Below are positions 23 to 62,468 of a stretch of 64,000 bases of DNA, piece by piece; position 1 is the stretch's first letter, and every line of letters begins with the position of its first letter. The notes under the pieces were generated by a model, which saw nothing but the letters and a program-made list of their open reading frames with translations, was not told the DNA's origin and ran no database searches. The DNA is from a virus, in IMG/VR virus record IMGVR_UViG_3300008227_000004; one strand, written 5' to 3'. Made by a program: the position numbers and the translations under genes.

Positions 23-319
23 TTGTATTATATAACGAGTAGCATAATGACATTCGAAGAAAGAGTTAGTGCATTGAGTATTAGTATTGGTAGGGCTATG
101 TTATGTGGTCGAGCATATCGTGTGGTTGGATTTCCGCGTGATAAAACGGGTCGTATATTAGTTGATGTTGGTACCGCTAATGATTGGCTGGATGTTGATG
201 ATGTATTATCAAGTGCGAAGAAGTTATTGATTGATAGTATTAGTGATGATGAGGTATCGAAGCCGGTTAGTGTATATAACATTAATCGTATTCATGGTGT
301 GTTAGATAGGGGTGTATAG
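23..319 (+). CDS. hypothetical protein
   Basis: 98-aa ORF at window start; first in a + strand array, overlaps next ORF. Confidence 0.4.
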   Translation: MYYITSSIMTFEERVSALSISIGRAMLCGRAYRVVGFPRDKTGRILVDVGTANDWLDVDDVLSSAKKLLIDSISDDEVSKPVSVYNINRIHGVLDRGV

Positions 320-677
320 ATTGGATATTAATGAGTTATTGAACATGCCATTGCATGAGCAGAAGTCTCTCAATACCAACAGACGTGTAATGAGGGTACC
401 TGGGGGATGGATATATACATTTCATGATTGTAATGGGTGGACCTTATCGTCGCAGTTTGTTGGTGAAGTTGTGGAAGAAGTTGATCGGTTAGCTGTACCG
501 GAGCCACCTCCTATTCGATTTTTGCCAGATGTTCCTGTTCCTAAGAGGCCAGTTGGTAAGATAATTAAGGAGGGTTGCACTAATTTTTGTTCCGAATGTG
601 GTAGTTCTGCTGTCAGGGATAGAATATTATTTGGTGATTTAGTTTGTATTAATCCGGAGTGTCATAGTCATGACTGA
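312..677 (+). CDS. hypothetical protein with C-terminal zinc-ribbon (CxxC...CxxC)
   Basis: 121-aa ORF; C-terminal CSECGS...CINPEC motif; stop overlaps next start. Confidence 0.5.
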   Translation: MYRLDINELLNMPLHEQKSLNTNRRVMRVPGGWIYTFHDCNGWTLSSQFVGEVVEEVDRLAVPEPPPIRFLPDVPVPKRPVGKIIKEGCTNFCSECGSSAVRDRILFGDLVCINPECHSHD

Positions 678-5329: not shown

Positions 5330-6249
5330 GCAATGAATTAATACCTAGATCATTCTGGGAACGTAAAGAAGGTATCTTCGGTATGGGTATAACAGCCCTT
5401 ATAACATTTGGAGTAGCGTATGGTGCTTGGATGTTGTTACCTTTTATCATCATCATGTTGACCAATACGATACAGACTATATTTTTAGCTATCGCGTTAT
5501 TCCTCATGGTGGCTGTTTTGAGTAATGGAACATTCCATGCAATTGCTTGGCATACTTTTAAAAGTGTTACACGTTTCATTGCTAGTTTATTCGTTACAGT
5601 AGATCCGGTAGGGATTGTAAAGAATCACATCGAGAGTCTAAAAGACAAACGAGATGATATGCAAGCTCACGTTAAGGACCTAAGAGTAAACGCTAAATCG
5701 TTGATGTCAACTATCTCGTCAAGCAAACAGGAAATCGACGACACCTTGCGTATGGCCAAAAAAGCCGAACAAGAGGGTAATGCAGCTGAATTTCGATTAA
5801 GAACCAGAAAAGCTGGTCGTCGTCAAAATTCTGTCGCAGGTTTGCAAGAGTTATATAACAAAATGGAATATTTGTTACGTATCTTAGAGAAGATCTACAT
5901 GAATTCGGGTTACAAGATTGAAGACCTGGAAGATGATGTAAACATCAAGATCAAAGAGTTTGAAGCGAGTAAGGGTGCTAGATCAGCAATATCATCAGCA
6001 TTGTACTTACTGAAAGGTGATAGCAAGCGTGATGAGCTTTTCGAATTATCGATGGATCATATGGCAGATCAAGTTGACTTAATGCTCGGAGAGCTGGATG
6101 ATATGATGTTCGTAACGAATGAAATATCAGCTTCAATAGATTTGGAAAATGGAATGTACGAAGATAAAGGATTTGAACTACTTAAACAACTTGAGCAGAA
6201 CACAAATGGGATGCTTATTACTCAACAAGAATTTATTAACTTAAAATAA
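5326..6249 (+). CDS. membrane protein with long C-terminal coiled coil
   Basis: 307 aa; two predicted TM helices then heptad-rich region; precedes the ABC-transporter-like genes. Confidence 0.55.
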   Translation: MSNELIPRSFWERKEGIFGMGITALITFGVAYGAWMLLPFIIIMLTNTIQTIFLAIALFLMVAVLSNGTFHAIAWHTFKSVTRFIASLFVTVDPVGIVKNHIESLKDKRDDMQAHVKDLRVNAKSLMSTISSSKQEIDDTLRMAKKAEQEGNAAEFRLRTRKAGRRQNSVAGLQELYNKMEYLLRILEKIYMNSGYKIEDLEDDVNIKIKEFEASKGARSAISSALYLLKGDSKRDELFELSMDHMADQVDLMLGELDDMMFVTNEISASIDLENGMYEDKGFELLKQLEQNTNGMLITQQEFINLK

Positions 6250-6265
6250 CAAAGGTATTATAAAC

Positions 6266-8029
6266 ATGGCTAGAAAAGGCAAATTAGGAATCGGATCAAA
6301 ATTCATCTTGATGTTCGTTGGTGTAGGAATTTTTATCTTCGGAGGTCAGTACTTAGTACAAGAGTATGATCCTATCGTAGCAGAAGCTCCAGCAATTCCA
6401 AACAATCTCATTCCGATGGGTAAAGATCTGACAATTTCGACAGCACCGATTACCGAATATGTATCACCGGTAACGGCATCCGGTCCAATGAGTTATCGAT
6501 GGGCCACCATTCCTTGGAATGGTATGTCAGGTGCGATGTTCGCTGTTAGTGGTGAAAACAGCTTAATGAAACAATATGGGCTGGATGTGACAATCTCACG
6601 CCAAGATTCATATTCACAAATGCAAAACGATTTAGTGACATTCGCGGAAGCATATTCCAAAGGTGACACTCACACATCAAAAGGTGTTCAGTTTGTTACC
6701 ATCATGGGTAACGGAGCTCCAGCATTTGTTGCAGAGTTAAATGAACAACTACGAACTAAGTTAGGACCAAACTATATTGCACAGATTGTTGCTGGTGTTG
6801 GGTTCTCACGAGGTGAAGATCAATGTATGGCCTCTCCAGAAGCATTAAAGAACAAATTAAGAGGTTCTTTGATCGCAGCTGTTAAAGCAGATGGTGATGA
6901 AGATATTTGTTTCGCTTACATGGGTAGTAATGGTGTAGCAAACAATCCAGATTCAACAACATACGATCCTGATAAAGTAAACTGGGTTCACGTCGATTCA
7001 TTCGTAGAAGCAGATAACAAGTGGTTAAGCAATTATTGTGAAACACGACCAGTTATCTCTAACGGTGTTAAGACTGGATCTTCTAAGAAAGTATGTGTTG
7101 ATGGTGTTGGTACTTGGTTCCCAGGTGATGATGTTGTAGCACGAGGTGAACGTCCGATTGTTACCGTAGCTTCAACAAAAGATGATTATATGTGGTTGAT
7201 GCCAACTACAGTTATCACCATCAAACAATTTGCAGAAGATAACAGAGCTGATGTAGAAAATATGTTAGCCGCAGTACTTGAAGGTGGTACACGAGTAAAT
7301 GCATCCGATGCAGACTTATTAGTATCAGCAACAACAAGTGCAGCAATCTACAAAGAAGAAAATGGTGCATACTGGGCCAAAGCGTACAAAGGCTATACAG
7401 TAAAAGGTGTCGAGGTTGGTGGTTCATATGCTAACAACTTGGGTGATGCAATCAATACTTTCGGTTTACGAGCTGGTCAAGTAGATGTTATGACAGCAGT
7501 ATTAAATGGTCGTGGTCAAGTTGCTCAGAGTCAATATCCAGATCTGATCAAAGTGTTACCAGATGCGAACGAAGTTATCAACAAATCATTCATCCAAGCT
7601 TTGATGAAACGTGTAGATGATGCTAACATTAATGTTAAACCTTTCACACCAACATTCTCTTCAACCGATACCACTTCAACAGTGGTCGGCAAGAAAGTGT
7701 GGAAGCTAGCATTCAGAACTGGTAGCGCCAACTTTACCGAAGCCTCAAAACCAACATTAGCAAAAATCGTTGAAGAACAAGCACTTACAGGGCTAAAGCT
7801 ACAGATTCATGGATACACTGATAGTACTGGTTCAGCTGCTGGCAATGCAATTCTATCCGGTAAGCGTGCTAATGCAGTCAAGACTTGGGTAACATCAAAC
7901 TACTCCAAGACTTTCCCAGACGCTCGAATCGATACAGTCGCACATGGTCAGGATGATCCAATTGCAACAAATGCAACACCAACTGGAAGAGCTTTGAATC
8001 GTCGTGTTGAGATCTGGTTAGTAAAATAA
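6266..8029 (+). CDS. envelope protein with C-terminal OmpA/MotB-like peptidoglycan-binding domain; central region possibly NMT1/SsuA-like solute-binding
   Basis: 587 aa; N-terminal signal anchor; C-terminus has the OmpA_C signature (HGYTDSTGSAAGNAILSGKRA...NRRVEI). Confidence 0.6.
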   Translation: MARKGKLGIGSKFILMFVGVGIFIFGGQYLVQEYDPIVAEAPAIPNNLIPMGKDLTISTAPITEYVSPVTASGPMSYRWATIPWNGMSGAMFAVSGENSLMKQYGLDVTISRQDSYSQMQNDLVTFAEAYSKGDTHTSKGVQFVTIMGNGAPAFVAELNEQLRTKLGPNYIAQIVAGVGFSRGEDQCMASPEALKNKLRGSLIAAVKADGDEDICFAYMGSNGVANNPDSTTYDPDKVNWVHVDSFVEADNKWLSNYCETRPVISNGVKTGSSKKVCVDGVGTWFPGDDVVARGERPIVTVASTKDDYMWLMPTTVITIKQFAEDNRADVENMLAAVLEGGTRVNASDADLLVSATTSAAIYKEENGAYWAKAYKGYTVKGVEVGGSYANNLGDAINTFGLRAGQVDVMTAVLNGRGQVAQSQYPDLIKVLPDANEVINKSFIQALMKRVDDANINVKPFTPTFSSTDTTSTVVGKKVWKLAFRTGSANFTEASKPTLAKIVEEQALTGLKLQIHGYTDSTGSAAGNAILSGKRANAVKTWVTSNYSKTFPDARIDTVAHGQDDPIATNATPTGRALNRRVEIWLVK

Positions 8030-26984: not shown

Positions 26985-27782
26985 TTGGTAACATTGGTGA
27001 AAATACGAATAATGAGTGACCTCCATCTTGAATTTGGAGAATTGGATGTGGCGGTTGGTGAAGATGAACAGAACACCACGTTGGTGTTGGCGGGTGATAT
27101 TGGGATAGCGCACCAACCGGATGTGTATGTTGGATTTTTTACCAAAATGAGCAACAGATTTAAACACATAATATATATAATGGGAAACCATGAGCACTAC
27201 CGTGGTAAATTTCCATTAACGTTGAGCATATTGCAAGACAAATTAAAATCATTGAGCAATGTTAGTGTGGTAGATAAAGATACTGTTATCGTTGATGGTG
27301 TTGCATTCGTGTGTGCCACGTTGTGGACTGATTTCGATGGTGGAAATCCGATGTCAATGTGGTATGCAAAAACTGGTATGAATGATTTCAAACTGATACG
27401 AACAGGCCCGAAAAGTGAGCCGTGGCGTAGGAAATTTGGTCCAGAAGATGCATTTGTTGACTTTACTCATGCAAAAGACTTTATATTCAAAGAAATTCCA
27501 AAACAAAAAGAAATGGGCAACAGCGTTATGGTTGTTACTCATCACGCTCCATCACATGAATCGTCGGCGCCTGAGTGGCGAAATGCTGACACAGCTGGTG
27601 CATATGCTTCAGTATTGGTGGATGAAATACTCGCCGCTGAACCAGATGTGTGGGTTCACGGACACATGCACTCAACTAGTGACTACATGATTGGTAATAC
27701 TAGAATACTAGCAAACCCATTCGGATACATGAAACATGATGTTAATGGAGAATTTAACGACCTGTTGACTGTCGAGTTATAA
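26985..27782 (+). CDS. calcineurin-like metallophosphoesterase
   Basis: 265 aa; SDLHLE, GDIG, GNHE, HHAP and GHMH metallophosphatase motifs. Confidence 0.7.
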   Translation: MVTLVKIRIMSDLHLEFGELDVAVGEDEQNTTLVLAGDIGIAHQPDVYVGFFTKMSNRFKHIIYIMGNHEHYRGKFPLTLSILQDKLKSLSNVSVVDKDTVIVDGVAFVCATLWTDFDGGNPMSMWYAKTGMNDFKLIRTGPKSEPWRRKFGPEDAFVDFTHAKDFIFKEIPKQKEMGNSVMVVTHHAPSHESSAPEWRNADTAGAYASVLVDEILAAEPDVWVHGHMHSTSDYMIGNTRILANPFGYMKHDVNGEFNDLLTVEL

Positions 27783-28134
27783 ATACCAGGATGAAAGTGC
27801 ACGAGGTAGTTCCTGAACCAACTAAAGCAGAAGTTCTCAAACGAATGAGAGCCATGATAAAACGTAAAGCTAAAAACCCAGCAGATCCCGAGTTGAGTGC
27901 TGGATGGAATCAAAGTCCGCATCAAGGTAGTACACCTGGTGCATTTTTGAATAGGTGACATATGAAAGTTGAAGAATTGGTATCATCAAAAGAATACAAA
28001 ACCACGAAAATTAATATTCACACAAGAAAGCGAAAAAGAAAAAGAAACATAAAGGGGGATACCGATCCCCATTTTTCTAACATAGACACCCACTACGGAA
28101 TGACTGGAGCTGGACGGGGAGCTGTTATACAGTC

Positions 28135-31163: not shown

Positions 31164-33140
31164 ATGAGTTTTATCACAGATGCAGCAAAATCCACAACCG
31201 AATTAATTGATACACTGATCGAAGAGCATTCAACCCAGGAATTAATTGATATTCTAATGACTGCCGACGATGAATATGCCAACAGTACTGATGGTGATTT
31301 AACACTAACAGACACACAATACGACATCCTACGCCGCAAATTGCAACTCTCCGTTCCTCACCACGTATATTTTACTGGGGTTGGAAGTGCTGTCCGTGGT
31401 GGTAAAGTAAAACTGCCACATAAAATGGGCAGTCTAAACCAAATATTCGAGAATGATGTAGAAGCTTGGGTTTCTGATAACCGATTAACAACATCACGAT
31501 TTGTTATAACCGACAAACTTGACGGTGTTAGTGCGATGGTAATCTATCCTGGTAACGATGAACCGTTTCAAATTGGTTATAGTCGTGGGGATGGTACGGA
31601 AGGTGCGGATATTTCTCGTCACCTATCAAAAATTGTACCAAAATCAATACCACACCCAACATCGTTGGCTATTCGTGGTGAAATCATTCTAACAAAAGAA
31701 GGGTTTGATGTCCTGAAAACTAAAGTGTTTACTCGTCAGGGCTTAGAATACAAAAACGCTCGCAATATGGTTGCAGGGTTGATGAATTCAAAAACAAATC
31801 CGGATATCGTGTATTCATTTCTCAAATTCGTATCATACCAAATCGTTGGTGTTACTCTTAGTAAAACAGCAATGCTGTATACTCTAATGGAGTACGGCTT
31901 TAAAGTTCCCGTTCTGGCAACGCGGATGGGTAGGGATCTGAATGATCCAGACTTAATTGCATACCTAACAGAACGAAAAGAGAAAGCTGAATATGAAATC
32001 GATGGTATTGTTGTTGATGTTGATGACGAATTAGAGCGTGTGAGACTCAGTCCAAATGCTGCTGCCCTCAATCCATCATATTCATTTAAGTACAAAACGA
32101 CAGATGCTGATAATTACGCAGAAACGGAAGTTACTTGGATTGAACTGAGATTATCCAAACACGGATTCATAAAACCACGATTTCACGTTAAACCTGTTAA
32201 TCTGGTCGGTGTTACTATCGTTCATGCTACAGCCCTAAACGCCAAATACTTACTAGAAAACAAAATCAGACCAGGCACAAAAGTGGCAATCTCTCGTATG
32301 GGGGATGTGGTTCCTAATGTAACAAAGATTTTGGGACAGACCGACGAAATGTCTGATGACGAATACAACTTGTGGTTCAATGATCAAATGGATCAGTTCG
32401 GCGTTTGGACCTGGTCTACCACAGACAAAGGGGACGGTGTGGATGCAAAGGTAGTCGACATTAGCAACCATTCCATCATATTAATCAAGCAGTTATATGA
32501 TTTCTTTGATAAACTAGATATTGCGTTTCTTGGTATGGGCAATGTAACGAAATTAGTTGATAGCAAAATTGACACACCCGAATCGATACTAACAATGACC
32601 GAAGCTGAATTGGTTGGTGTGCTGGGTGAGAATGGGAAAAAAGTATTCAAAAGCATTCACGAAAAGTTAAATGGTATTACACTACACAAGCTAGTAGGTG
32701 CACACTCAAATCAACGTGGAATTGGTATACGAAAGATGCGTAAGGTTGAGCTAGCAGTTGGTGGTAACTTTACCACCAACCAATCAATATCATCGATCAA
32801 ATCGTTGGATGGCTTTGATACCATCACCGCTACGGGCGCCATGGCCGCTATAAACGCATTCAATGACTTTTTCCCCATCGTTAAGCATCTGGTAACACTT
32901 GAAAGTGCAACACCAACCGATGCTAAATTAGCTGGGATGAAAATATGCTTCACCGGCTTTCGTGATAAACCACTTCAAGCTGCTGTGGAGTCGAAAGGTG
33001 GTACAGTACAGAGTGGTGTTAGCAAAACCACCGATCTCGTTGTGACCGTTGATGTGAACGGTGCGAGTGGTAAACTAAAGAAAGCCAGAGATCTAAGCAA
33101 AAAGATCATTACAGTTGAAGACTTCATGCAGTTGTTATAA
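31164..33140 (+). CDS. ligA: NAD+-dependent DNA ligase (LigA-like) with C-terminal BRCT domain
   Basis: 658 aa; adenylation motif TDKLDGVS; OB-fold and HhH-like regions; C-terminal BRCT-like KICFTGFRDKPLQAAVESKGGTVQSGVSKTTDLVV. Confidence 0.8.
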   Translation: MSFITDAAKSTTELIDTLIEEHSTQELIDILMTADDEYANSTDGDLTLTDTQYDILRRKLQLSVPHHVYFTGVGSAVRGGKVKLPHKMGSLNQIFENDVEAWVSDNRLTTSRFVITDKLDGVSAMVIYPGNDEPFQIGYSRGDGTEGADISRHLSKIVPKSIPHPTSLAIRGEIILTKEGFDVLKTKVFTRQGLEYKNARNMVAGLMNSKTNPDIVYSFLKFVSYQIVGVTLSKTAMLYTLMEYGFKVPVLATRMGRDLNDPDLIAYLTERKEKAEYEIDGIVVDVDDELERVRLSPNAAALNPSYSFKYKTTDADNYAETEVTWIELRLSKHGFIKPRFHVKPVNLVGVTIVHATALNAKYLLENKIRPGTKVAISRMGDVVPNVTKILGQTDEMSDDEYNLWFNDQMDQFGVWTWSTTDKGDGVDAKVVDISNHSIILIKQLYDFFDKLDIAFLGMGNVTKLVDSKIDTPESILTMTEAELVGVLGENGKKVFKSIHEKLNGITLHKLVGAHSNQRGIGIRKMRKVELAVGGNFTTNQSISSIKSLDGFDTITATGAMAAINAFNDFFPIVKHLVTLESATPTDAKLAGMKICFTGFRDKPLQAAVESKGGTVQSGVSKTTDLVVTVDVNGASGKLKKARDLSKKIITVEDFMQLL

Positions 33141-33394: not shown

Positions 33395-33473
33395 CATGCA
33401 CGTGCACGTATCGAGTATAATTCAGTTTTCTAATGGGACGAATCCCAATTTTATTAACAATAAAGAGAATATT

Positions 33474-33749
33474 ATGAAACAAAAAGGCTTCACATTAATT
33501 GAGATGATGATTGTGGTAACAATCATCGGTATATTAGCATCAATCGTTATCCCTGCGGTGAAGGAAATGGAAGAGCGTAAAGGTACAACTAGTAATCCTC
33601 CCGTATTCAAATCAAAAGAGAATATTGTCCGTGAGTACCTACCAAATAAAAAACGCAGTCACAAAGAAGTTACACTAAAACAACACTCAGATGGAACACT
33701 ATATGCGTGTGATGCCATTGATGTTGATACTTGTTATCGGGTGAAATGA
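33474..33749 (+). CDS. type IV pilin-like (prepilin) protein
   Basis: 91 aa; MKQKG-FTLIEMMIVVTIIGILA is a class III prepilin leader (G-1, F+1, E+5); C-terminal Cys pair YACDAIDVDTCY; AAGAGA RBS-like. Confidence 0.6.
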   Translation: MKQKGFTLIEMMIVVTIIGILASIVIPAVKEMEERKGTTSNPPVFKSKENIVREYLPNKKRSHKEVTLKQHSDGTLYACDAIDVDTCYRVK

Positions 33750-35048: not shown

Positions 35049-35069
35049 GCGATGAGATAGACTCATCGC
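35049..35069 (+). promoter_or_regulatory. conserved hairpin element upstream of natV (GCGATGAG-ATAGA-CTCATCGC)
   Basis: perfect 8-bp stem with ATAGA loop, 27 nt before the natV ATG; same architecture upstream of nadV. Confidence 0.45.
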
Positions 35070-35095
35070 ATAACAATAACCTAGGAGGATTTCCT

Positions 35096-36133
35096 ATGAA
35101 TACAGAAGAACAATACGACTACCTCGTGTACATTGGTAGATTTCAGCCATCTCACTTGGCACACATCGAAACAATCAAAATTGCGTTACAACAATCCAAA
35201 AATGTTATAATACTAATCGGATCGTCATTTCAACCAAAGACAATCAAAAATCCTTGGTCATGGCAAGAACGTGCGGAAATGATCAGCAACTCGCTATCTC
35301 ATAGCGAAAAACTCAGAGTACAATTTGCACCCATTGCGGATGATGCTTACAACAATCAACGTTGGGTTACACAAGTCCAAAAAATGGTCGAAACGTTAAG
35401 CACCGAAGGAAGCCACATCGGAATGATCGGTCACACTAAAGATGACACATCATTCTACTTAAAAATGTTTCCTCAATGGAAGCATGTTGAGGTTCCTAAT
35501 ATCAACGACTTGCACGCAACTGACATCCGTGTCGCTTTGTTTGAACACTCAACAGACTTTTTCAGCAAACAAGTTATGCCAACATTACCAAAAGCTATTC
35601 ACGAATACTTGTTGGCATGGAAGCTAAAACCTATCTTCGAACAACTGAAATATGAATATGAATTTATACAGAAATATAAATCCGCTTGGGCTGTAGCTCC
35701 ATATGAACCAATCTTCGTGACAGTTGATGCTGTAGTGGTGCAATCAGGACACGTGTTATTGGTAAAACGGCGATCGGCTCCAGGAAAAGGATTGTGGGCT
35801 ATTGTCGGGGGGTTTGTAAATCCAAACGAGACTCTCATTGATGCTATGTTACGGGAATTAAGAGAAGAGACTAAAATTAAGGTGCCCGATCCTATATTAC
35901 GGGGGAATATCAAAATACAAGAGGTGTACGATCACCCTGCCCGAAGTTTACGGGGTAGAACTATAACACATGCTTACGGTATCGAATTACCACCAGGTGG
36001 ACTTCCAAAAGTGAAAGGAAGCGATGATGCTGAAAAAGCACAATGGATTCCGATTACCACAATTAAAGAAATGCGCGATCAATTGTTTGAAGATCACTAC
36101 GATATTATTTTTGATATGTTGGGACGGTTGTAA
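35096..36133 (+). CDS. natV: bifunctional NMN adenylyltransferase / Nudix ADP-ribose pyrophosphatase (NatV/NadM-Nudix-like)
   Basis: 345 aa; N-terminal nucleotidyltransferase motif YIGRFQPSHLAH (HxGH-type); C-terminal Nudix box GGFVNPNETLIDAMLRELREETKI; strong RBS TAGGAGGA. Confidence 0.85.
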   Translation: MNTEEQYDYLVYIGRFQPSHLAHIETIKIALQQSKNVIILIGSSFQPKTIKNPWSWQERAEMISNSLSHSEKLRVQFAPIADDAYNNQRWVTQVQKMVETLSTEGSHIGMIGHTKDDTSFYLKMFPQWKHVEVPNINDLHATDIRVALFEHSTDFFSKQVMPTLPKAIHEYLLAWKLKPIFEQLKYEYEFIQKYKSAWAVAPYEPIFVTVDAVVVQSGHVLLVKRRSAPGKGLWAIVGGFVNPNETLIDAMLRELREETKIKVPDPILRGNIKIQEVYDHPARSLRGRTITHAYGIELPPGGLPKVKGSDDAEKAQWIPITTIKEMRDQLFEDHYDIIFDMLGRL

Positions 36134-36177
36134 TAAATAACCTGGAAGAGAGCATTATCTCTTCCAGGAGACCACAC

Positions 36178-36792
36178 ATGGAAATGATAAACTTTAAACA
36201 ACGGTGGGATATATTATATCAAACGACAGACGATGTAGCTGAAACGTTAGTGGAAGCAAAACAACGCAATGCCACATATTATCGCCACATCTGTAAAAAA
36301 CACGGAAAAGTATTATTTTACACAAAAGACAATAGCTGTCCAATTTGTTGTAAGGTTGCTCGTGATATTCGTGTTACCCACAATAGGGTGTTTAATAGAT
36401 CCCGTGAAATATACAATGAAATTAAACAACGGGCAAAAAAAAAGAATGTTTTGTTTTTGTTGACAAAAGAAGAATTTAGAACAATATATGGAACAGTGCA
36501 TCTATGTCCGGTACTTCATATACCGATAGTATATGATAAAATCGAAGGAGTAATGACGGATAATTCTCCGTCCACTGATAGACTCATACCCGAAAACGGA
36601 TATACAATGGATAATATTAACATTATATCGAATCGAGCCAATCGGATAAAAAACAACGGAACACCAACCGAACACATACAAGTTGCTATTTGGCAATTGA
36701 AACAAGAGGGTAATACTGCGGAAGATATATTGGATATAGTAACAACGGCACTAAACTCAACCAACATCGTCAATGCTTTCATTGGTGACTAA
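36178..36792 (+). CDS. HNH homing endonuclease inserted between natV and nadV
   Basis: 204 aa; HNH_3-like DRLIPENGYTMDNINIISNRANRIKNN motif; zinc-binding CPICC. Confidence 0.55.
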   Translation: MEMINFKQRWDILYQTTDDVAETLVEAKQRNATYYRHICKKHGKVLFYTKDNSCPICCKVARDIRVTHNRVFNRSREIYNEIKQRAKKKNVLFLLTKEEFRTIYGTVHLCPVLHIPIVYDKIEGVMTDNSPSTDRLIPENGYTMDNINIISNRANRIKNNGTPTEHIQVAIWQLKQEGNTAEDILDIVTTALNSTNIVNAFIGD

Positions 36793-36850
36793 CAAAACCA
36801 GTTGTCGAGCATTGCAGTTACAGGTGATGCTTTTTATTTTTAACGCACAA

Positions 36851-36873
36851 GGGATATCGATAGACGATATCCC
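36851..36873 (+). promoter_or_regulatory. conserved hairpin element upstream of nadV (GGGATATCG-ATAGA-CGATATCCC)
   Basis: perfect 9-bp stem with ATAGA loop, 24 nt before the nadV ATG; followed by GAGGATTTC RBS block shared with natV. Confidence 0.45.
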
Positions 36874-36897
36874 ACGCAAACATAGAGGATTTCTATA

Positions 36898-38322
36898 ATG
36901 AACTTTTTACAACACGCAGTTTTTAACATTTTACTAAACACAGATTCATATAAAGCGAGCCATTGGTTGCAGTATCCCCCTGGTATTGAGTATGTTCACT
37001 GCTATATTGAATCGCGTGGTGGGGTATACGATGAAACGGTATTCTTCGGATTGCAGATGTTCTTACAAGAATACATGAGCAAACCAATCACACAAGAAAT
37101 GATTGACGAAGCGGAATTGTTCTGGCCTGCTCATGGTGAACCATTCAACAAAGAAGGATGGCAACACATATTAAAAGAGCACAACGGTTACTTACCGTTA
37201 AAAATCAAGTCGGTGGCGGAAGGTACTGTTGTACCGGTAAGCAATGCACTGGTTACTATCGTTAATACTGATCCGAAATGCTTTTGGTTACCATCACACG
37301 TCGAACCATCGATATTACGTGGTGTGTGGTATCCAACTACAGTAGCAACCAACAGCTGGACCACCAGAAAAGTAATTACGAGTTACATGAAATCAACATC
37401 CGACTTAACCGGACAAGAACAGGAAGATGCTATCGATTTTATGTTGCATGACTTCGGATCGCGTGGTGTTAGTTCACTGGAAAGTGCCATGATTGGTGGA
37501 GCTGCACACTTGGTAAATTTCAAAGGATCTGATAATGTACCAGGTATAGTTCACGCAAATAGACAATATTCGCATGAGATGTCAGGAAAATCTGTACCAG
37601 CATCCGAACACAGTTCAATTACTACATGGGGCAAGGGACGGGAGACAGAAGCATATCGCAATATGTTGAAGCAATATGGAGACAAGTTCTTCGCATTCTC
37701 TGTGGTATCCGACTCGTACGATATTTTCAATGCAGTTGAACATATCTGGGGTGATGAGCTGAAAGAATTGGTTATTGAGTGTGATGGGTGGCTAGTTATC
37801 AGACCTGATAGTGGTGATCCAGCAACCGTGGTAACAAAAATTATGTTGTTGCTTGAATCCGCATTCGGTTACATCCGTAATACCAAAGGCTATAAAGTAC
37901 TAAAACATGTTCGAGTGTTGCAAGGTGATGGCATTACAACCAAAAGCATTGATGCTATATTATCGAAGATGGTTGGATACAAGTTCAGTGCGGAAAATGT
38001 ATTATTTGGACAGGGTGGTGCGTTATTACAACAACTGGATCGAGATACTGGCAGATGGGCATATAAAGCAAGTGCTGCATTTATCAATGGTGAGTGGGTC
38101 GATGTATTCAAAGATCCGATTACCGATACCGGTAAACGCTCGAAACGTGGACAATTAATGTTATACCGTTCGGATGCAGGTAAATTTACAACAGATTGTA
38201 TTGGGGCAAAAACAATGGATGAACAAATGCTCACTCCTGTGTACCTAAATGGTAAAATATTGCGAACTACAACATTGGAAGAAGTTCGTACTACTAGATT
38301 CAACACAACTAACACATTATGA
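36898..38322 (+). CDS. nadV: nicotinamide phosphoribosyltransferase (Nampt/NadV)
   Basis: 474 aa; NAMPT hallmarks DSYKASHW, LHDFGSRG, GSDNVPG, RPDSGDP. Confidence 0.9.
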   Translation: MNFLQHAVFNILLNTDSYKASHWLQYPPGIEYVHCYIESRGGVYDETVFFGLQMFLQEYMSKPITQEMIDEAELFWPAHGEPFNKEGWQHILKEHNGYLPLKIKSVAEGTVVPVSNALVTIVNTDPKCFWLPSHVEPSILRGVWYPTTVATNSWTTRKVITSYMKSTSDLTGQEQEDAIDFMLHDFGSRGVSSLESAMIGGAAHLVNFKGSDNVPGIVHANRQYSHEMSGKSVPASEHSSITTWGKGRETEAYRNMLKQYGDKFFAFSVVSDSYDIFNAVEHIWGDELKELVIECDGWLVIRPDSGDPATVVTKIMLLLESAFGYIRNTKGYKVLKHVRVLQGDGITTKSIDAILSKMVGYKFSAENVLFGQGGALLQQLDRDTGRWAYKASAAFINGEWVDVFKDPITDTGKRSKRGQLMLYRSDAGKFTTDCIGAKTMDEQMLTPVYLNGKILRTTTLEEVRTTRFNTTNTL

Positions 38323-38781: not shown

Positions 38782-39228
38782 ATGTCATTATTATCACAAA
38801 TAGCTGCAGATCGATTGCAATTCCGTAAGGACCGAAATAAAGCTGCCGCAACAACATTAACAACACTGTACGGCGAAGCTGCCATCTTAGGTAAGAATGA
38901 TGGTAATCGTGAGTCAACTGACGATGAAGTTATGAAGGTTGTCAAGAAATTCATTAAGGGCGTTCGAGACAATCAAACATATCGTCCGCTGACTGATGCT
39001 GAAATAAATGAAGTTGCGTTGTACGAGCAATATATTCCAGCTACAATATCAGAAGAAGTGATTACTGAATTCGCGTCGGGATTGTTATCTAGTTTATCAT
39101 CATCGGAAATCTCCATGAAGTTGATGGGTAGAACGATGGGTGCGTTAAACAAAGCCTTTCCGGATCAAGTGGATGGACAAATCGCTGGACCTATCATCAA
39201 ACAGATAATACAGGAGAAAATGGGGTGA
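38782..39228 (+). CDS. GatB/YqeY-domain protein
   Basis: 148 aa; N-terminus MSLLSQIAADRLQFRKDRNKAA...TDDEVMKVVKKFIKGVRD matches the YqeY pattern. Confidence 0.45.
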   Translation: MSLLSQIAADRLQFRKDRNKAAATTLTTLYGEAAILGKNDGNRESTDDEVMKVVKKFIKGVRDNQTYRPLTDAEINEVALYEQYIPATISEEVITEFASGLLSSLSSSEISMKLMGRTMGALNKAFPDQVDGQIAGPIIKQIIQEKMG

Positions 39229-39706: not shown

Positions 39707-40023
39707 AAAATCACACACAAGATGAGGTATCGTTCTTAGACTCTCGGATATCAAGCACCAACCGTGTTGTAAAAGATCAAGATGATGAGTTATTACTGAG
39801 CCATGGATGGGAGTTTGCAGGATTGGGTTTATTTTCACACCCAGTGTTGAGTGGAGCTCGCAAACAAACGTGTTTTACGAAAGAACAAGCACTACTAAAC
39901 AACCACAAAGTAATCGGCAAATGTCCGATGTGTGGCATGTGCGAAGATACAGACTGCTGTCCACCGGCCGAATGTAAATGTTTATATGGTATAAATTTTA
40001 AATTACAAGGTAACCAACAATGA
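39703..40023 (+). CDS. Cys-rich hypothetical protein (start at ATG overlapping upstream stop; track ORF begins 39583)
   Basis: 106 aa; CPMCGMCEDTDCCPPAECKC cluster. Confidence 0.45.
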   Translation: MKNHTQDEVSFLDSRISSTNRVVKDQDDELLLSHGWEFAGLGLFSHPVLSGARKQTCFTKEQALLNNHKVIGKCPMCGMCEDTDCCPPAECKCLYGINFKLQGNQQ

Positions 40024-40463
40024 TTAACGAGATACATAAAGATATCACAACTGCAACAACTGGAATCGTAGCGCACGGTGTAAACTGTCAGAAAAAAATG
40101 GGATCAGGTGTTGCATTAGCAATTAAAAACAAATGGCCCATCATATACGAAGTATATATGGACAGTAAATCAACTTTAGGAATGGTGGATACCATTGAAG
40201 TTGGTGATCTATTATATGTTGCCAATTGTTATACTCAAGATGAGTGTGGTACAGATCAAAAGAAATATGCGTCACCCAGTGCAATCAGAACAGCACTTAT
40301 GAGTGTTTATGAGTTTGCTGAACAATATGGTATTGACGTACAATTGCCGAAAATCGGATCAGATCGTGGTGGTTTGGATTGGGATACAGAAGTGTTTCCT
40401 ATTATTCAAATGCTCGATGGTGTATTCGATACAGTAACAACAAATATACATTTATGGGACTAA
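40020..40463 (+). CDS. macro-domain-like protein (ADP-ribose binding/hydrolase fold)
   Basis: 147 aa; GIVAHGVNCQKKMGSGVALAI resembles the macro VNAAN...GGGVxGAI motif; later LPKIGSDRGGLDWD resembles the macro FPxISTGxYG segment. Confidence 0.45.
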   Translation: MINEIHKDITTATTGIVAHGVNCQKKMGSGVALAIKNKWPIIYEVYMDSKSTLGMVDTIEVGDLLYVANCYTQDECGTDQKKYASPSAIRTALMSVYEFAEQYGIDVQLPKIGSDRGGLDWDTEVFPIIQMLDGVFDTVTTNIHLWD

Positions 40464-41234: not shown

Positions 41235-41609
41235 ATGGACAATGAATCACTATCTTTCAAGCAATTTTTAATCGAATATGATCACAGCGACTTACAACTT
41301 CGCCACGATCTCAACAAACAAAAAGCTGACAAACAATCAATTACCCAAGATTCAGCTAACTTCCAACGCAAAATGGATGCAGATCACGCCAAACAAACTG
41401 GGACACAATCACAAGACGGTGAACCAAATAAAGGTGATGTTCTTCACTCCCCTAGTGGTAAACAATTTCAAGTTATTGCTAGAAACAACGACGGGTTTCG
41501 AGTTCGCGAATTGGGTGGCGATCGCAAAGAAGGAACACTACCCCATGGTAGAAAATATACCGCTGTCGGAAAAACACCACTTAACAAGACCATATTTAAA
41601 ATCGCATGA
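41235..41609 (+). CDS. hypothetical protein (start moved downstream of the terminator)
   Basis: 124 aa; AAGGA RBS 9 nt upstream of the ATG at 41235. Confidence 0.5.
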   Translation: MDNESLSFKQFLIEYDHSDLQLRHDLNKQKADKQSITQDSANFQRKMDADHAKQTGTQSQDGEPNKGDVLHSPSGKQFQVIARNNDGFRVRELGGDRKEGTLPHGRKYTAVGKTPLNKTIFKIA

Positions 41610-42097
41610 TGAAACATTTAATATTAATCGCTATACTTTTCGGGATTACCCACACAGCGCAAGCTGATAGTGGAGAGCTGATTCTACCCATTATTCGGGT
41701 GTATGATGGAGACACCATTGTAACAAATTTATCGTTACCAGCACCACTGAATAAAGTTAGTGTCCGTATACGCGGAATCGATACTCCAGAAAATCCAGCT
41801 GCCAGTTATGTGGTCACCGGAAAGCTAGGACGAGCAAAGTGCAGACTGGAAGCTAAGCGAGCAAGAGCGGCTACAGCGTATCTGCGATTACTACACTCCA
41901 GACATGGCGGAACAATGACAGTAAAAAACCTTGAATATGGTGCTTACGCTGGTAGAATTGTTGGTGATGTGTATATTGGTGGTGTAAATGTTGGTCAACG
42001 GATGTTGGAGAGGGGATACGCTGTTCCATACGATGGTAAATCAAAACGGAACAATGATTGGTGTGTGCCTGATGTTGATATCCACCGTAAAAGGTAG
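41606..42097 (+). CDS. secreted thermonuclease (SNase-like)
   Basis: 163 aa; signal peptide; SNc motif VYDGDTIV...VRIRGIDTPE. Confidence 0.65.
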   Translation: MMKHLILIAILFGITHTAQADSGELILPIIRVYDGDTIVTNLSLPAPLNKVSVRIRGIDTPENPAASYVVTGKLGRAKCRLEAKRARAATAYLRLLHSRHGGTMTVKNLEYGAYAGRIVGDVYIGGVNVGQRMLERGYAVPYDGKSKRNNDWCVPDVDIHRKR

Positions 42098-42136: not shown

Positions 42137-43231
42137 ATGTTAATATATGTAGTTGGTGGTGCCGTTAGAGACACCTTACTAAACCAACCAGTAAACGATA
42201 TCGATTATGTTGTTGTCGGTTCAACGCCCGAAGAGATGGAGTCGTTAGGCTACAAGCAAGTTGGAGCGGACTTTCCCGTATTCTTATGCCCCAATGGCGA
42301 TGAATACGCATTAGCTAGAACCGAGCGGAAAAACGGTAACGGTTACAATGGGTTCGAAACGAACTTCAATCCCACCGTTACCTTAGCCGAAGATCTACTA
42401 CGCCGTGACCTAACTATTAACTCAATGGCAGTATTGCTATCTGATTGGGATCAGTTCAAAACAACACATGATGTTACCAAAGTGATCGATCCATGTGGTG
42501 GGTTGCAAGATCTTGTTAACAAAACACTAAAACACACATCCGAGCATTTCGCGGATGATCCAGTACGATTGTTGCGAATAGCTAGATTCAACGCTAAGTA
42601 TGGGTTCAATGTAACCAGACAAACAATGCAATTGATGACAACAATGACCACAAACGGTGAAGTGGATCATTTGGTACCCGAACGTGTGTGGGCTGAAACA
42701 GCTAAAGCAATCGAGCTACCAAATGCAATGGAGTTTTTTTGGATACTCCATCGATGTGGAGCATTGAATGTTATCATACCAGGGCTAACAAAAACTCTGG
42801 TAGCAAATGGAAAATCGTTTAGATCGGCAACACTCAGAAATTGCAGCACCGCCATCCGAATGATGATATTATTTGGACCGATGCTGGATGCTTCTGACGC
42901 ATTAACAAAGCTACGAGCACCATCATCAGTAATCAGAGATGTGCTAGCATTTCAACATGCTATGCAATTGGTGAGCAACGATGTAACACCAGAGGCTGTA
43001 TTGGGATTTTTAAAAACAATAAAAACTTCTGAATTGCTCTACGATATTTCAACCGCCATTAGTGTAGTGAATCCATCAGGGGCGTTGATATACGATCGCG
43101 TTATACAAGGACACAACCTCATCAGATTTATATCGTTTCGTTCGCTACCGGCCAATCATACGTTGGAAGGTAAGCAAATTGGTGTAGCAATCGATAATCT
43201 TCGCATCGCAGTTATTGCTGACCTATTATGA
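42137..43231 (+). CDS. cca: tRNA nucleotidyltransferase (CCA-adding enzyme)
   Basis: 364 aa; VGGAVRDTLLNQPVNDIDYVV and RRDLTINSMA are class II CCA/poly(A) polymerase head motifs. Confidence 0.8.
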   Translation: MLIYVVGGAVRDTLLNQPVNDIDYVVVGSTPEEMESLGYKQVGADFPVFLCPNGDEYALARTERKNGNGYNGFETNFNPTVTLAEDLLRRDLTINSMAVLLSDWDQFKTTHDVTKVIDPCGGLQDLVNKTLKHTSEHFADDPVRLLRIARFNAKYGFNVTRQTMQLMTTMTTNGEVDHLVPERVWAETAKAIELPNAMEFFWILHRCGALNVIIPGLTKTLVANGKSFRSATLRNCSTAIRMMILFGPMLDASDALTKLRAPSSVIRDVLAFQHAMQLVSNDVTPEAVLGFLKTIKTSELLYDISTAISVVNPSGALIYDRVIQGHNLIRFISFRSLPANHTLEGKQIGVAIDNLRIAVIADLL

Positions 43232-61310: not shown

Positions 61311-61355
61311 ATTGTTGTATTGTTATTGTTTTTAATCATATGTGGATATTTACTA

Positions 61356-62468
61356 ATGAACCAATACCAACAAACTTTATACGATCAATTGATAGCCCTA
61401 ACATCAACCACCGATGCCTTCTTTTTCGCTGATCACACACACGAACGCATTAAATACCGAATTTTCAACTATCGATTAGCATCATATTCGTTGTTTTGTT
61501 TACCGTCAGCGCAAGAATGTCGAGGTATTATGTTTGAATTGGATGAATGTGGGGATGCCATTAGATTAGCTGCACTTCCTATGCACAAATTCTACAATTT
61601 GCACGAAAATCCATTTACTATGGATGTTGACCTAACAACTGTTGATCGAATTATGGTTAAGTCGGATGGTTCGTTAATCTCAACGTACATGCATGGCAGT
61701 GAAATGCGGCTAAAATCCAAAGGATCGTTAGCTTCTGTCCAAGCGATTGATGCTATGGAGTGGTTGAACAAATACGAGAACATCGACTTCAAAATGGACT
61801 TGTTGCACTTCACCCTAAACGGTCACACTGTAAACTTGGAATGGGTGGGACCCGACAATCGAATCGTGTTAGGATACGAGCAGTCAGCATTGATTGTATT
61901 GAATATCCGCGATACTGCCACAGGATTGTATCGCCCTGCCTCTATGTCAACGTTCATCGACTACTCATACCCCAACGTAAAAACAGATGATGTGGTATCG
62001 TTCGTTGAATCTGTACCACGCATGACAGATAGCATTGAAGGCTTCGTTTGTATTACTACAGATGGTTTGTGGTTCAAATTGAAAACAGAAAAATACTTGT
62101 CGTTGCACCGCACGAAAGATTCGATTAACTGCCCACGTAGATTATTCGATGCTTGTGTTGATGATGCTGTTGACGATATGCGCTCAATGTTCTATGATGA
62201 CCCTCAAGCGATCGTGCTTATCGATGAAATGCAAGAATTTGTTGATACACGATACAACCACATGGTTTCCACCGTTGAAACTTTTTTTGCAACAAATGAA
62301 CGATACGATCGCAAAGATTTCGCAATTACAGCTGGTCAAGAGTTAACCAAACAAGAGTTCGGCTTGGTGATGAACCTGTACATGCAACGTCCCGTAGATT
62401 ACAAGGCTTCCATGAAGAAAAATTGGAAGAACTACGGTATTTCAAACGAAAAAACGGAAACAAAATGA
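61356..62468 (+). CDS. rnlA: RNA ligase 1 (T4 RnlA-like)
   Basis: 370 aa; motif I KSDGSLISTYMHG (T4: KEDGSLVSTYLDG); conserved ECRGIMFE, FNLHENPFTM, RIVLGYEQ blocks matching T4 Rnl1. Confidence 0.85.
   Translation: MNQYQQTLYDQLIALTSTTDAFFFADHTHERIKYRIFNYRLASYSLFCLPSAQECRGIMFELDECGDAIRLAALPMHKFYNLHENPFTMDVDLTTVDRIMVKSDGSLISTYMHGSEMRLKSKGSLASVQAIDAMEWLNKYENIDFKMDLLHFTLNGHTVNLEWVGPDNRIVLGYEQSALIVLNIRDTATGLYRPASMSTFIDYSYPNVKTDDVVSFVESVPRMTDSIEGFVCITTDGLWFKLKTEKYLSLHRTKDSINCPRRLFDACVDDAVDDMRSMFYDDPQAIVLIDEMQEFVDTRYNHMVSTVETFFATNERYDRKDFAITAGQELTKQEFGLVMNLYMQRPVDYKASMKKNWKNYGISNEKTETK

Follow-up and report, generated by a model that had tools for sequence, protein, structure and literature searches.

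In phage KVP40, a Nampt and an Nmnat enzyme together make up the pathway NARP2, which abolishes type I Thoeris and DSR2 defense, raises NAD+ even in cells that are free of any defense system, and occurs in about 1.1% of sequenced phages (bioRxiv 10.1101/2024.02.11.579819); a third pathway, NARP3, consists of PnuC and NadR (PMC13464706). Among phage endonuclease genes, those for I-TevI through I-TevIII of T4, T4 segB, and Aeh1 mobE are preceded by a hairpin that hides the ribosome-binding site (RBS) on early read-through transcripts, and a late promoter that initiates inside this hairpin frees the RBS (PMC2988022). Free-standing PacI-like HNH endonucleases are already on record in phages, namely in lactococcal Skunavirus (PMC12724721). 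Here, we compare with these systems a 64,000-nucleotide stretch of viral DNA (IMG/VR record IMGVR_UViG_3300008227_000004; hereafter, the window), in which natV and nadV, the two genes of an NARP2-type pair, are separated by a third open reading frame (ORF). We consider it probable that the window carries the NARP2-type NAD+ module of an uncultured jumbo phage, together with a free-standing homing endonuclease cassette that is specialized on natV.

The three genes reside on the plus strand, where an earlier note made from the sequence alone had placed them, with natV at 35096..36133 (345 amino acids), the middle ORF at 36178..36792 (204 amino acids), and nadV at 36898..38322 (474 amino acids). 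The endonuclease-type middle ORF indeed sits between the two NAD+ genes, flanked by gaps of 44 and 105 nucleotides (nt), and natV and nadV are 764 bp apart on one strand, which brings homologs of Nampt and Nmnat together within one phage genome, the gene content by which NARP2 is recognized. The window is phage-like in that it contains a T4 Rnl1-like ligase, genes of PHROG families, and homologs of jumbo-phage proteins; its NAD-dependent DNA ligase and Rnl1-like RNA ligase show their top similarity (35-43% identity) to those of jumbo phages such as XacN1, Xoo-sp13, Phosso, and Atu_ph07. Since the closest relatives of both ligases are jumbo-phage proteins, the source, as judged from its proteins, is an uncultured jumbo phage. 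At the DNA level, Megablast with the 4.5-kb locus as query gave no match among 50,697 phage records, and IMG/VR scans with single proteins (NadV or the middle-ORF product) gave none either.

NadV has the sequence of a bona fide nicotinamide phosphoribosyltransferase (NAMPT). It scores 596.5 bits against the NCBIfam model NF006629 (cutoff, 405), contains the Pfam domains NAMPT_N (PF18127, E = 4.7e-31; residues 10-103) and NAPRTase, the type II phosphoribosyltransferase domain (PF04095, E = 5.4e-51; residues 181-419), and matches phrog_448 (E = 1e-155). Further, its alignment with Xanthomonas NAMPT (PDB 7yqo; E = 1.6e-155) runs from one end to the other, and it matches mammalian NAMPT structures at E values of about 1e-121. 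The motifs quoted in the earlier note, DSYKASHW (residues 16-23; 36943-36966), LHDFGSRG (residues 183-190; 37444-37467), and RPDSGDP (residues 302-308; 37801-37821), are all present, as are the active-site residues Y18, F186/R189, D212, H238, R302/D304, G343-D344, and G373-G374, which are identical in the 7yqo alignment. Their counterparts in human NAMPT are the catalytic residues Y18, F193/R196, D219, H247, and R311/D313, plus the GDG and GGG motifs; the Asp of GxD selects nicotinamide and the His of EHS is autophosphorylated, with the Tyr of DSYK, the Phe and Arg of HDFG-x-R, RPDSG, and GGG/ALLQ as further NAMPT motifs. NadV homologs occur in 2016 of the 50,697 phage records (tblastn), the best phage match being 55% identical and the KVP40-group proteins about 46-48% identical. 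Nampt differs from the NARP1 enzyme Namat in its preference for phosphoribosyl pyrophosphate (PRPP) over ADP-ribose pyrophosphate (ADPR-PP), and no Adps gene, as found in NARP1, was present among the ORFs scanned, which, like the nearby Nmnat gene, indirectly favors a Nampt here.

NatV, in turn, by its sequence joins a NadM-type nicotinamide mononucleotide (NMN) adenylyltransferase (NMNAT) to a Nudix domain. Three NCBIfam equivalog models for a "bifunctional NMN adenylyltransferase/Nudix hydrolase" score it above their cutoffs (NF003786, 440.2 bits with a cutoff of 397; NF003791, 415.9 with 409; NF003788, 381.5 with 354), and Pfam finds an N-terminal CTP_transf_like domain (PF01467, E = 2.8e-10) and a C-terminal NUDIX domain (PF00293, E = 1.3e-18). 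Over residues 5-341, NatV aligns with Synechocystis slr0787 (PDB 2qjo; E = 1.6e-98), and it also matches Francisella NadM-Nudix (2qjt; E = 4.7e-75), which places the NMNAT domain at residues ~11-190 and the Nudix ADP-ribose pyrophosphatase domain at residues ~208-338. Within the NMNAT domain, GRFQPSHLAH (residues 14-23) carries the HxGH motif as H-L-A-H, with both histidines kept and the glycine changed to alanine, as is also the case (HxAH) in the NatV of Synechococcus phage B23; HATDIR (residues 140-145) aligns with SSTAIR of 2qjo, the second nucleotidyltransferase motif. The Nudix box GGFVNPNETLIDAMLRELREETKI (residues 238-261) follows the pattern G239-x5-E245-x7-R253-E254-L-R-E257-E258-T-K-I, in which the penultimate Gly is a Lys, a position occupied by Arg in 2qjo. 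NatV with its HLAH motif is probably active. NatV homologs were found in 484 of the 50,697 phage records (tblastn), the best being that of Ruegeria phage RpAliso (46.7% identity), and RTH11 and LucasX, two Xanthomonas jumbo phages, are among the best phage matches of NadV and NatV. Both genes are full length relative to their solved homologs and are left untruncated by the insert between them.

Profile searches, which the earlier note had proposed as a check, thus put both proteins above the cutoffs of the NAMPT and NadM-Nudix models, with scores far higher than chance would give, and curated equivalog models, solved-structure homologs, and conserved active-site motifs agree with its two assignments. 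The family assignments also support the two-gene route from nicotinamide through NMN to NAD+ that it had drawn. In this route, NadV would form NMN from nicotinamide and PRPP supplied by the host, the NMNAT domain of NatV would use ATP to adenylate NMN to NAD+, and the Nudix domain could split ADP-ribose into AMP and ribose-5-phosphate. By analogy with KVP40, from which we infer both the enzyme activities and a counter-defense role for the pair, the module would sustain the NAD+ supply during infection, also following NAD+-depleting immunity. The pair is therefore known NARP2 biology in a new phage, and the pathway itself is not new.

The middle ORF encodes a protein with a beta-beta-alpha-metal fold that is nearest to PacI. 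It comprises a zinc-ribbon-like CxxH...CxxC region near the N terminus (C39, H42, C54, and C57; 36292-36348), a PacI-like nuclease domain (residues 69-182; 36382-36723), and, within this domain, the catalytic-type motif SPSTDRL...GY...N...ISNRANRIK (residues 130-158; 36565-36651), all on the plus strand. No Pfam or NCBIfam model matched the protein, and a scan of 48 family members with the same models pointed to no consistent family; matches to endonucleases were obtained in PHROG (phrog_3322, 6e-24; phrog_1035, 4e-18; phrog_3118, 1e-7). The family is large, with phmmer retrieving 11,049 cluster representatives at E ≤ 1e-3, most of which align over residues about 70-175 only. Across 261 of these domains, the conserved positions are C110-P111, S130-P-S/T-x-D134-R135, G141-Y142, N146, S151, A154-N155, and K158, with D134, Y142, and N155 conserved in 97-100%. 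The N-terminal CxxH...CxxC is invariant in the close clade and probably helps in DNA recognition. In many family members (e.g., P0018, P0022, P0024, and P0029), the nuclease domain is present twice in tandem on one chain; because PacI works as a homodimer, such proteins could be single-chain pseudo-dimers, analogous to the single-chain LAGLIDADG enzymes. Within the window, the middle ORF has no paralogs that we could find, and its G+C content of 0.353 is the second lowest among the 78 ORFs (z = -2.1).

The earlier note had named this gene an HNH homing endonuclease, and here our analysis departs from it, as the protein is not a canonical HNH enzyme. In canonical HNH enzymes, the general-base His directly follows the metal-binding Asp, as in D74-H75 of I-HmuI (PMC12724721), whereas D134 is followed by Arg in 85% of the middle-ORF family and otherwise by Lys, Gln, or Glu. 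Membership in the canonical HNH or Endonuclease VII families, to which the PHROG labels point, was rejected, as the catalytic His is absent, Pfam detects no HNH domain, and the structural match to PacI is clearly better than any other. PacI is a His-Me finger without the His, in which the metal is bound by an Asp and an Asn and a loop Tyr is placed to act as general base (PMC4081073; PMC5714182). While phmmer of the single protein against PDB sequences gave only noise, a 48-domain profile picked PacI, aligning "slDridpekGYvkgNiaviSnrANriK" with "VDRSDSFEGYSPQNARLACFICNRIK" at a borderline E of 0.076, and D134, Y142, and N155 align with the VDR..EGY..CNRIK of PacI. Foldseek comparisons with viral models returned mostly uncharacterized proteins, one "HNH endonuclease," and, more weakly (about E 1e-4), T4-type Srd "anti-sigma" proteins.

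We next turn to the genomic position of this nuclease, which was compared between loci with and without the insert, a comparison that the earlier note had suggested. When metagenomes were scanned with the family alignment, 80 loci were obtained, of which 4 carried a full-length homolog directly downstream of natV (L095, L096, L097, and L098; locus numbers are ours) and 76 the domain only. Together with the window and three sets of close homologs (L001-3, L004-5, and L006-7), this gave eight endonuclease-bearing lineages. In all eight, the full-length homolog starts 40-110 nt after natV, even though NatV identity to the window protein ranges from 62% down to 31% (the lowest, in L097). The close homologs are 46-51% identical to the window protein and start ~40 nt after a natV that is 55-62% identical. 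What follows the endonuclease differs: it is an AAA_28 (NRK-like) kinase gene or Metallophos and other genes, and not nadV, in the three sets of close homologs, and in L098, nadV lies 1.3 kb further downstream; the contigs of L095, L096, and L097 end before a downstream neighbor can be read. Because natV is upstream in every lineage and the downstream neighbors differ, the endonuclease clade is linked to the 3' side of natV, whatever follows, and not to the natV/nadV junction as such. None of the 76 domain-only relatives has natV nearby, and a more distant relative adjoins thyX. Separately, in L018/L019, which have no natV-adjacent copy, a distant paralog of the endonuclease family (110-598, minus strand; 28% identity with the L001 protein, E = 4e-9) is encoded on the strand opposite to natV, ~3.4 kb upstream of it.

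The converse association is rare. An IMG/VR scan with a NatV alignment yielded the 80 closest natV loci, whose NatV proteins are 44-61% identical, and no relative of the middle ORF was present in any of them (0/80). In a NatV tree, the endonuclease-bearing proteins fall in one clade, in which each of four lineages has an endonuclease-less sister: the window pairs with L014, L004 with L017, L006/7 with L015/16, and L001/3 with L025, the L001 and L025 proteins being about 70% identical in both NatV halves. This sister-lineage pattern, taken from a tree without support values, is suggestive. Overall, there is a clear asymmetry: the endonuclease is always found with natV and natV almost never with the endonuclease, which is the pattern expected of a selfish element specialized on a host gene.

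A regulatory element accompanies the gene. In the window, an AATAAATA box (36132..36139, plus strand), which overlaps the natV stop and matches the T4 late-promoter consensus TATAAATA at 7/8 positions, ends 1 nt before a hairpin (36141..36168, plus strand) whose 11-bp stem (CCUGGAAGAGA / UCUCUUCCAGG) encloses a 6-nt loop. The middle ORF has its ATG at 36178 and its Shine-Dalgarno sequence, AGGAGA, at 36166-36171, where it overlaps the 3' arm of this RBS hairpin, and the fold has a minimum free energy (MFE) of -21 kcal/mol (z-score, -3.9). The same arrangement recurs in 8/8 lineages, each with a box (exactly TATAAATA in L001, L004, L095, and L098; 7/8 in the window, L006, L096, and L097) followed 1-3 nt later by a 7-12-bp hairpin with the stem base CCNGG...CCNGG. 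A Shine-Dalgarno sequence (AGGAG or GGGAG) is present in the hairpin 3' arm, 7-9 nt before the ATG, in 7/8 lineages; the L097 spacer shows no clear Shine-Dalgarno sequence or ATG start. In a four-lineage alignment of the hairpin, 88.6% of the cells are paired and 4/11 pairs have changed on both sides, a result equaled by 5-6 of 500 shuffles, and in L098 the stem base, invariant elsewhere, has a C-G pair in place of U-A. Moreover, none of the 80 endonuclease-less natV loci contains the extended motif TAAATA[AC]CNGG. By analogy with T4, the TATAAATA-like box may be a late promoter; an operator or a sequence connected with the target is equally conceivable.

Two further hairpins flank the other end of the insert: a terminator-like hairpin with a 9-bp stem and a T-run (36807..36842, plus strand), found just past the endonuclease stop by a consensus scan and folding, and a second, perfect 9-bp hairpin, GGGATATCG-ATAGA-CGATATCCC (36851..36873, plus strand), upstream of the nadV ribosome-binding site. 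The region 36785-36905 folds with an MFE of -28.9 kcal/mol (z = -3.5). Given these two hairpins, the insert may uncouple nadV transcription from that of natV. A second copy of the cassette-type motif, TATAAATACCAGG, occurs at 27778-27790, exactly at the stop of a Metallophos gene (26985-27782), where tblastn detected no endonuclease remnant; Metallophos homologs neighbor the natV-endonuclease pair in L001 and L004.

Taken together, the TATAAATA-like box, the RBS-sequestering hairpin, and the gene for a PacI-like His-Me-finger endonuclease form a cassette that most likely acts as a free-standing homing endonuclease specialized on natV. In such a scheme, the D134/N155 pair would hold the metal and the invariant Y142, instead of a His, would serve as general base, while the N-terminal zinc-ribbon region would direct the enzyme to a site in or beside natV alleles that lack the cassette. 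The cassette would then be copied in, possibly with flanking natV sequence, as the break is repaired from the genome that bears the endonuclease. On early read-through transcripts, the hairpin would hide the Shine-Dalgarno sequence and leave the endonuclease untranslated, whereas transcripts that start inside the 5' arm would free it, as in T4 I-TevI, segB, and Aeh1 mobE. In its placement the ORF resembles a homing gene, being sporadic among relatives and lying between two genes that, in 18 of the 63 loci surveyed, are separated by at most 150 bp.

A number of observations weigh against our reading of the pair and its insert. The profile match to PacI is, by itself, borderline (E = 0.076); the Cys4 zinc sites of PacI are mostly gone, with only C110 left and S151 and A154 replacing a CxxC; and the matches to Srd models indicate that the fold is not confined to nucleases, so that a non-nuclease role is formally conceivable. 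On the enzyme side, NatV departs from HxGH by its G-to-A change; as to the insert, the NatV tree is a neighbor-joining tree of the shared 153 C-terminal residues without support values, and the 3' part of natV is 66-69% identical among endonuclease-bearing lineages compared with a mean of 65% between bearing and endonuclease-less pairs, which is no excess indicative of co-conversion, in sequences too diverged for a decisive outcome. The window shows no enrichment of TATAAATA (4 occurrences versus 5.4 expected). Cleavage, target site, mobility, and expression timing are all inferred. Finally, strict linkage to natV in 8/8 lineages is also what a functional partner would show, and the middle ORF could then be a domesticated companion of natV, either a DNA/RNA-binding regulator or a co-working nuclease, that is inherited vertically and repeatedly lost. 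That the linkage persists across NatV divergence to 31% identity, that the box and hairpin travel with the ORF, that a co-conversion signal is absent, and that T4-like Srd "anti-sigma" proteins are among the structural neighbors would all fit such a partner. We nonetheless regard it as improbable, as the ORF is missing from 80/80 of the nearest natV loci, sister lineages included, natV and nadV abut directly in 18/63 loci, the catalytic-type residues are invariant over 261 domains in unrelated contexts, domain-only relatives lie beside other classic homing targets such as thyX, and the G+C content of the ORF is atypical for the window. Still further from our expectation, and quite unlikely, is a PacI-like restriction-type nuclease that acts against host DNA or competing phages, does not home, and sits beside natV incidentally. 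PacI, itself a restriction enzyme, has no partner methyltransferase (PMC5714182), Ralstonia phage homologs of the middle ORF are annotated "restriction endonuclease," and phage HNH endonucleases can exclude related phages (PMC12724721); however, an incidental position leaves the same natV 3' junction in eight independent lineages unexplained, and homing and the exclusion of related genomes are two sides of one activity. A natV-specialized homing endonuclease remains our preferred reading of the cassette.

As for the benefit of NadV and NatV to the phage, the earlier note had called the counter-defense role "proposed," which understates the evidence, the KVP40 pair having already been shown to abolish type I Thoeris and DSR2 defense. 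It is conceivable, though we are doubtful, that the main benefit is instead metabolic, with the pair supplying NAD+ to phage enzymes such as an NAD-dependent DNA ligase. Such a ligase (adenylation, OB, and BRCT domains), an NAD+-consuming replication enzyme, is encoded 2 kb upstream of natV, near the salvage genes (31164-33140); NAD+ increases through the KVP40 pathway without any defense system present; and ADP-ribose-handling genes surround the module (a macro gene in the window, NADAR in relatives). Against a chiefly metabolic benefit stands the ability of the transplanted KVP40 enzymes to abolish both defenses; beyond this, the metabolic and counter-defense roles are compatible, and the sequence favors neither.

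The surroundings of the endonuclease were further examined in a survey of natV-nadV spacers, covering the 63 loci in which natV precedes nadV on the same strand. Spacers range from 39 bp to 3.4 kb, with 18 loci at 150 bp or less, 6 at 150-400 bp, 17 at 400-1000 bp, and 22 above 1 kb. The commonest cargo is a phrog_335 macro-type protein (15/63 loci; e.g., L089 5541-6074), followed by NADAR (7 loci), and further spacers contain Nuc_deoxyri_tr2, DUF1937, Nudix, and AAA_28 genes. Endonucleases are a minority, namely an HNH_3+NUMOD4 ORF in L082 and a DUF723 protein cluster in 4 loci, with 3 of its 4 ORFs on the opposite strand. The hotspot for mobile insertions that the earlier note had seen here therefore holds insofar as the spacer is highly variable, but its cargo consists mostly of NAD/ADP-ribose accessory genes. 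In other words, the natV-nadV junction is a flexible island that attracts mobile nucleases, and most of its inserts are functionally related accessory genes. nadV itself is interrupted in three loci: at residue ~188, within the LHDFG active-site motif, by a ~0.9-kb insert in L058 (3852-4367 and 5294-6112) and L082 (5818-6333 and 7249-8079), and at residue ~247 by a ~1.2-kb insert in L086 (5133-5825 and 7063-7716). The L082 insert carries an HNH_3+NUMOD4 endonuclease ORF (6525-7250), and that of L058 matches it in size and position; all three are probably group I introns or split genes.

In the window, a macro-domain protein is encoded 1.7 kb downstream of nadV (40020..40463, plus strand; phrog_335, 1.6e-29; Pfam Macro, 8e-5) and is probably an accessory of the NAD/ADP-ribose module, outside the core pair. 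The recurrence of macro and NADAR genes suggests a wider NAD/ADP-ribose island around NARP2. Downstream of natV, many relatives, with or without the endonuclease, have an AAA_28 gene resembling the ribosylnicotinamide kinase of NadR (L001 5179-5820; L004 2216-2773; L006 1995-2555; L014 ~5597-6070; L016 ~6381-6905; also L018-L021), which hints at a route composed of a nicotinamide riboside kinase and NatV; no homolog of this kinase was found in the window. Other window genes include a small ORF (33396-33749) with a pilin/pseudopilin-like leader, FTLIEMMIVV (phrog_3433 "pilin," 1.2e-7), a homolog of which is near natV in L017. The ORFs at 42137-43231, 61320-62468, 38782-39228, and 41606-42097 comprise RNA-repair/tRNA-type genes (a CCA-adding/poly(A) polymerase-family enzyme, the T4 Rnl1-like RNA ligase, and a YqeY-like protein) plus one phrog_452 endonuclease-family ORF.

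In summary, the observation made in the earlier note is confirmed and its interpretation is supported, with the refinements given above. What is new is modest, namely (i) the specialization of one endonuclease clade on natV, (ii) a conserved promoter-hairpin cassette, and (iii) the size of an unmodeled family: PacI-like His-Me-finger nucleases without the His form a big phage family, one clade of which is strictly tied to natV. If the cassette homes, anti-defense metabolic genes would be added to nrd, td, and thyX as genes that homing endonucleases target, and homing would be one route for NARP2 recombination between phages. More tentatively, and with less than even confidence, the natV-linked ORFs may be the first recognizable clade of a large PacI-type homing family with a Tyr general base (about 11,000 clusters at 50% identity, no Pfam model), and their cassette, with a late promoter and an RBS-hairpin switch of its own, would spread and reshuffle NARP2 horizontally among jumbo phages by cutting natV alleles and imposing repair from its own genome; selfish homing would then be linked to the dissemination of counter-immunity genes. 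Genes for macro, NADAR, Nudix, and NRK-like kinase proteins recur in natV-nadV spacers and indicate a broader phage NAD/ADP-ribose island, which may merit study.

Compared with known systems, the window pair resembles NARP2 of KVP40 (Lee et al. 2017; Osterman et al. 2024) in its enzyme families, domain architectures, and predicted route, and differs from it in being interrupted by an endonuclease cassette. LucasX and RTH11, both jumbo phages of Xanthomonas, have the same clustered order, natV and then nadV; the annotation of the KVP40-like phage nt-1 shows no natV in the 5 kb around nadV. NatV aligns over its full length with slr0787 and Francisella NadM-Nudix (2qjo; 2qjt/2r5w), sharing the conserved GRFQPxHxxH, (S/A)TxIR, and Nudix box, but is phage-encoded and has HLAH in place of HxGH. 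The middle ORF shares the aligned Asp/Asn/Tyr set with PacI (3ldy/3m7k; His-Me finger group 20, Jablonska et al. 2017), to which it adds an N-terminal zinc-ribbon region, a C-terminal helix, and an intergenic position in a phage. With the seg/mob endonucleases of T4-like phages and with Aeh1 mobE, which lies between nrdA and nrdB, it has in common an intergenic and sporadic occurrence, the neighborhood of one target gene, and an upstream late-promoter-like box with an RBS-sequestering hairpin (PMC2988022), whereas its nuclease is PacI-like and not GIY-YIG or canonical HNH, and its neighbor is an anti-defense/NAD gene and not one for replication or nucleotide synthesis. The Skunavirus endonucleases, compared here by their description only, are likewise free-standing, PacI-like by profile comparison, and variably present at one insertion location; they belong to another phage group, and their site is in the morphogenesis module.

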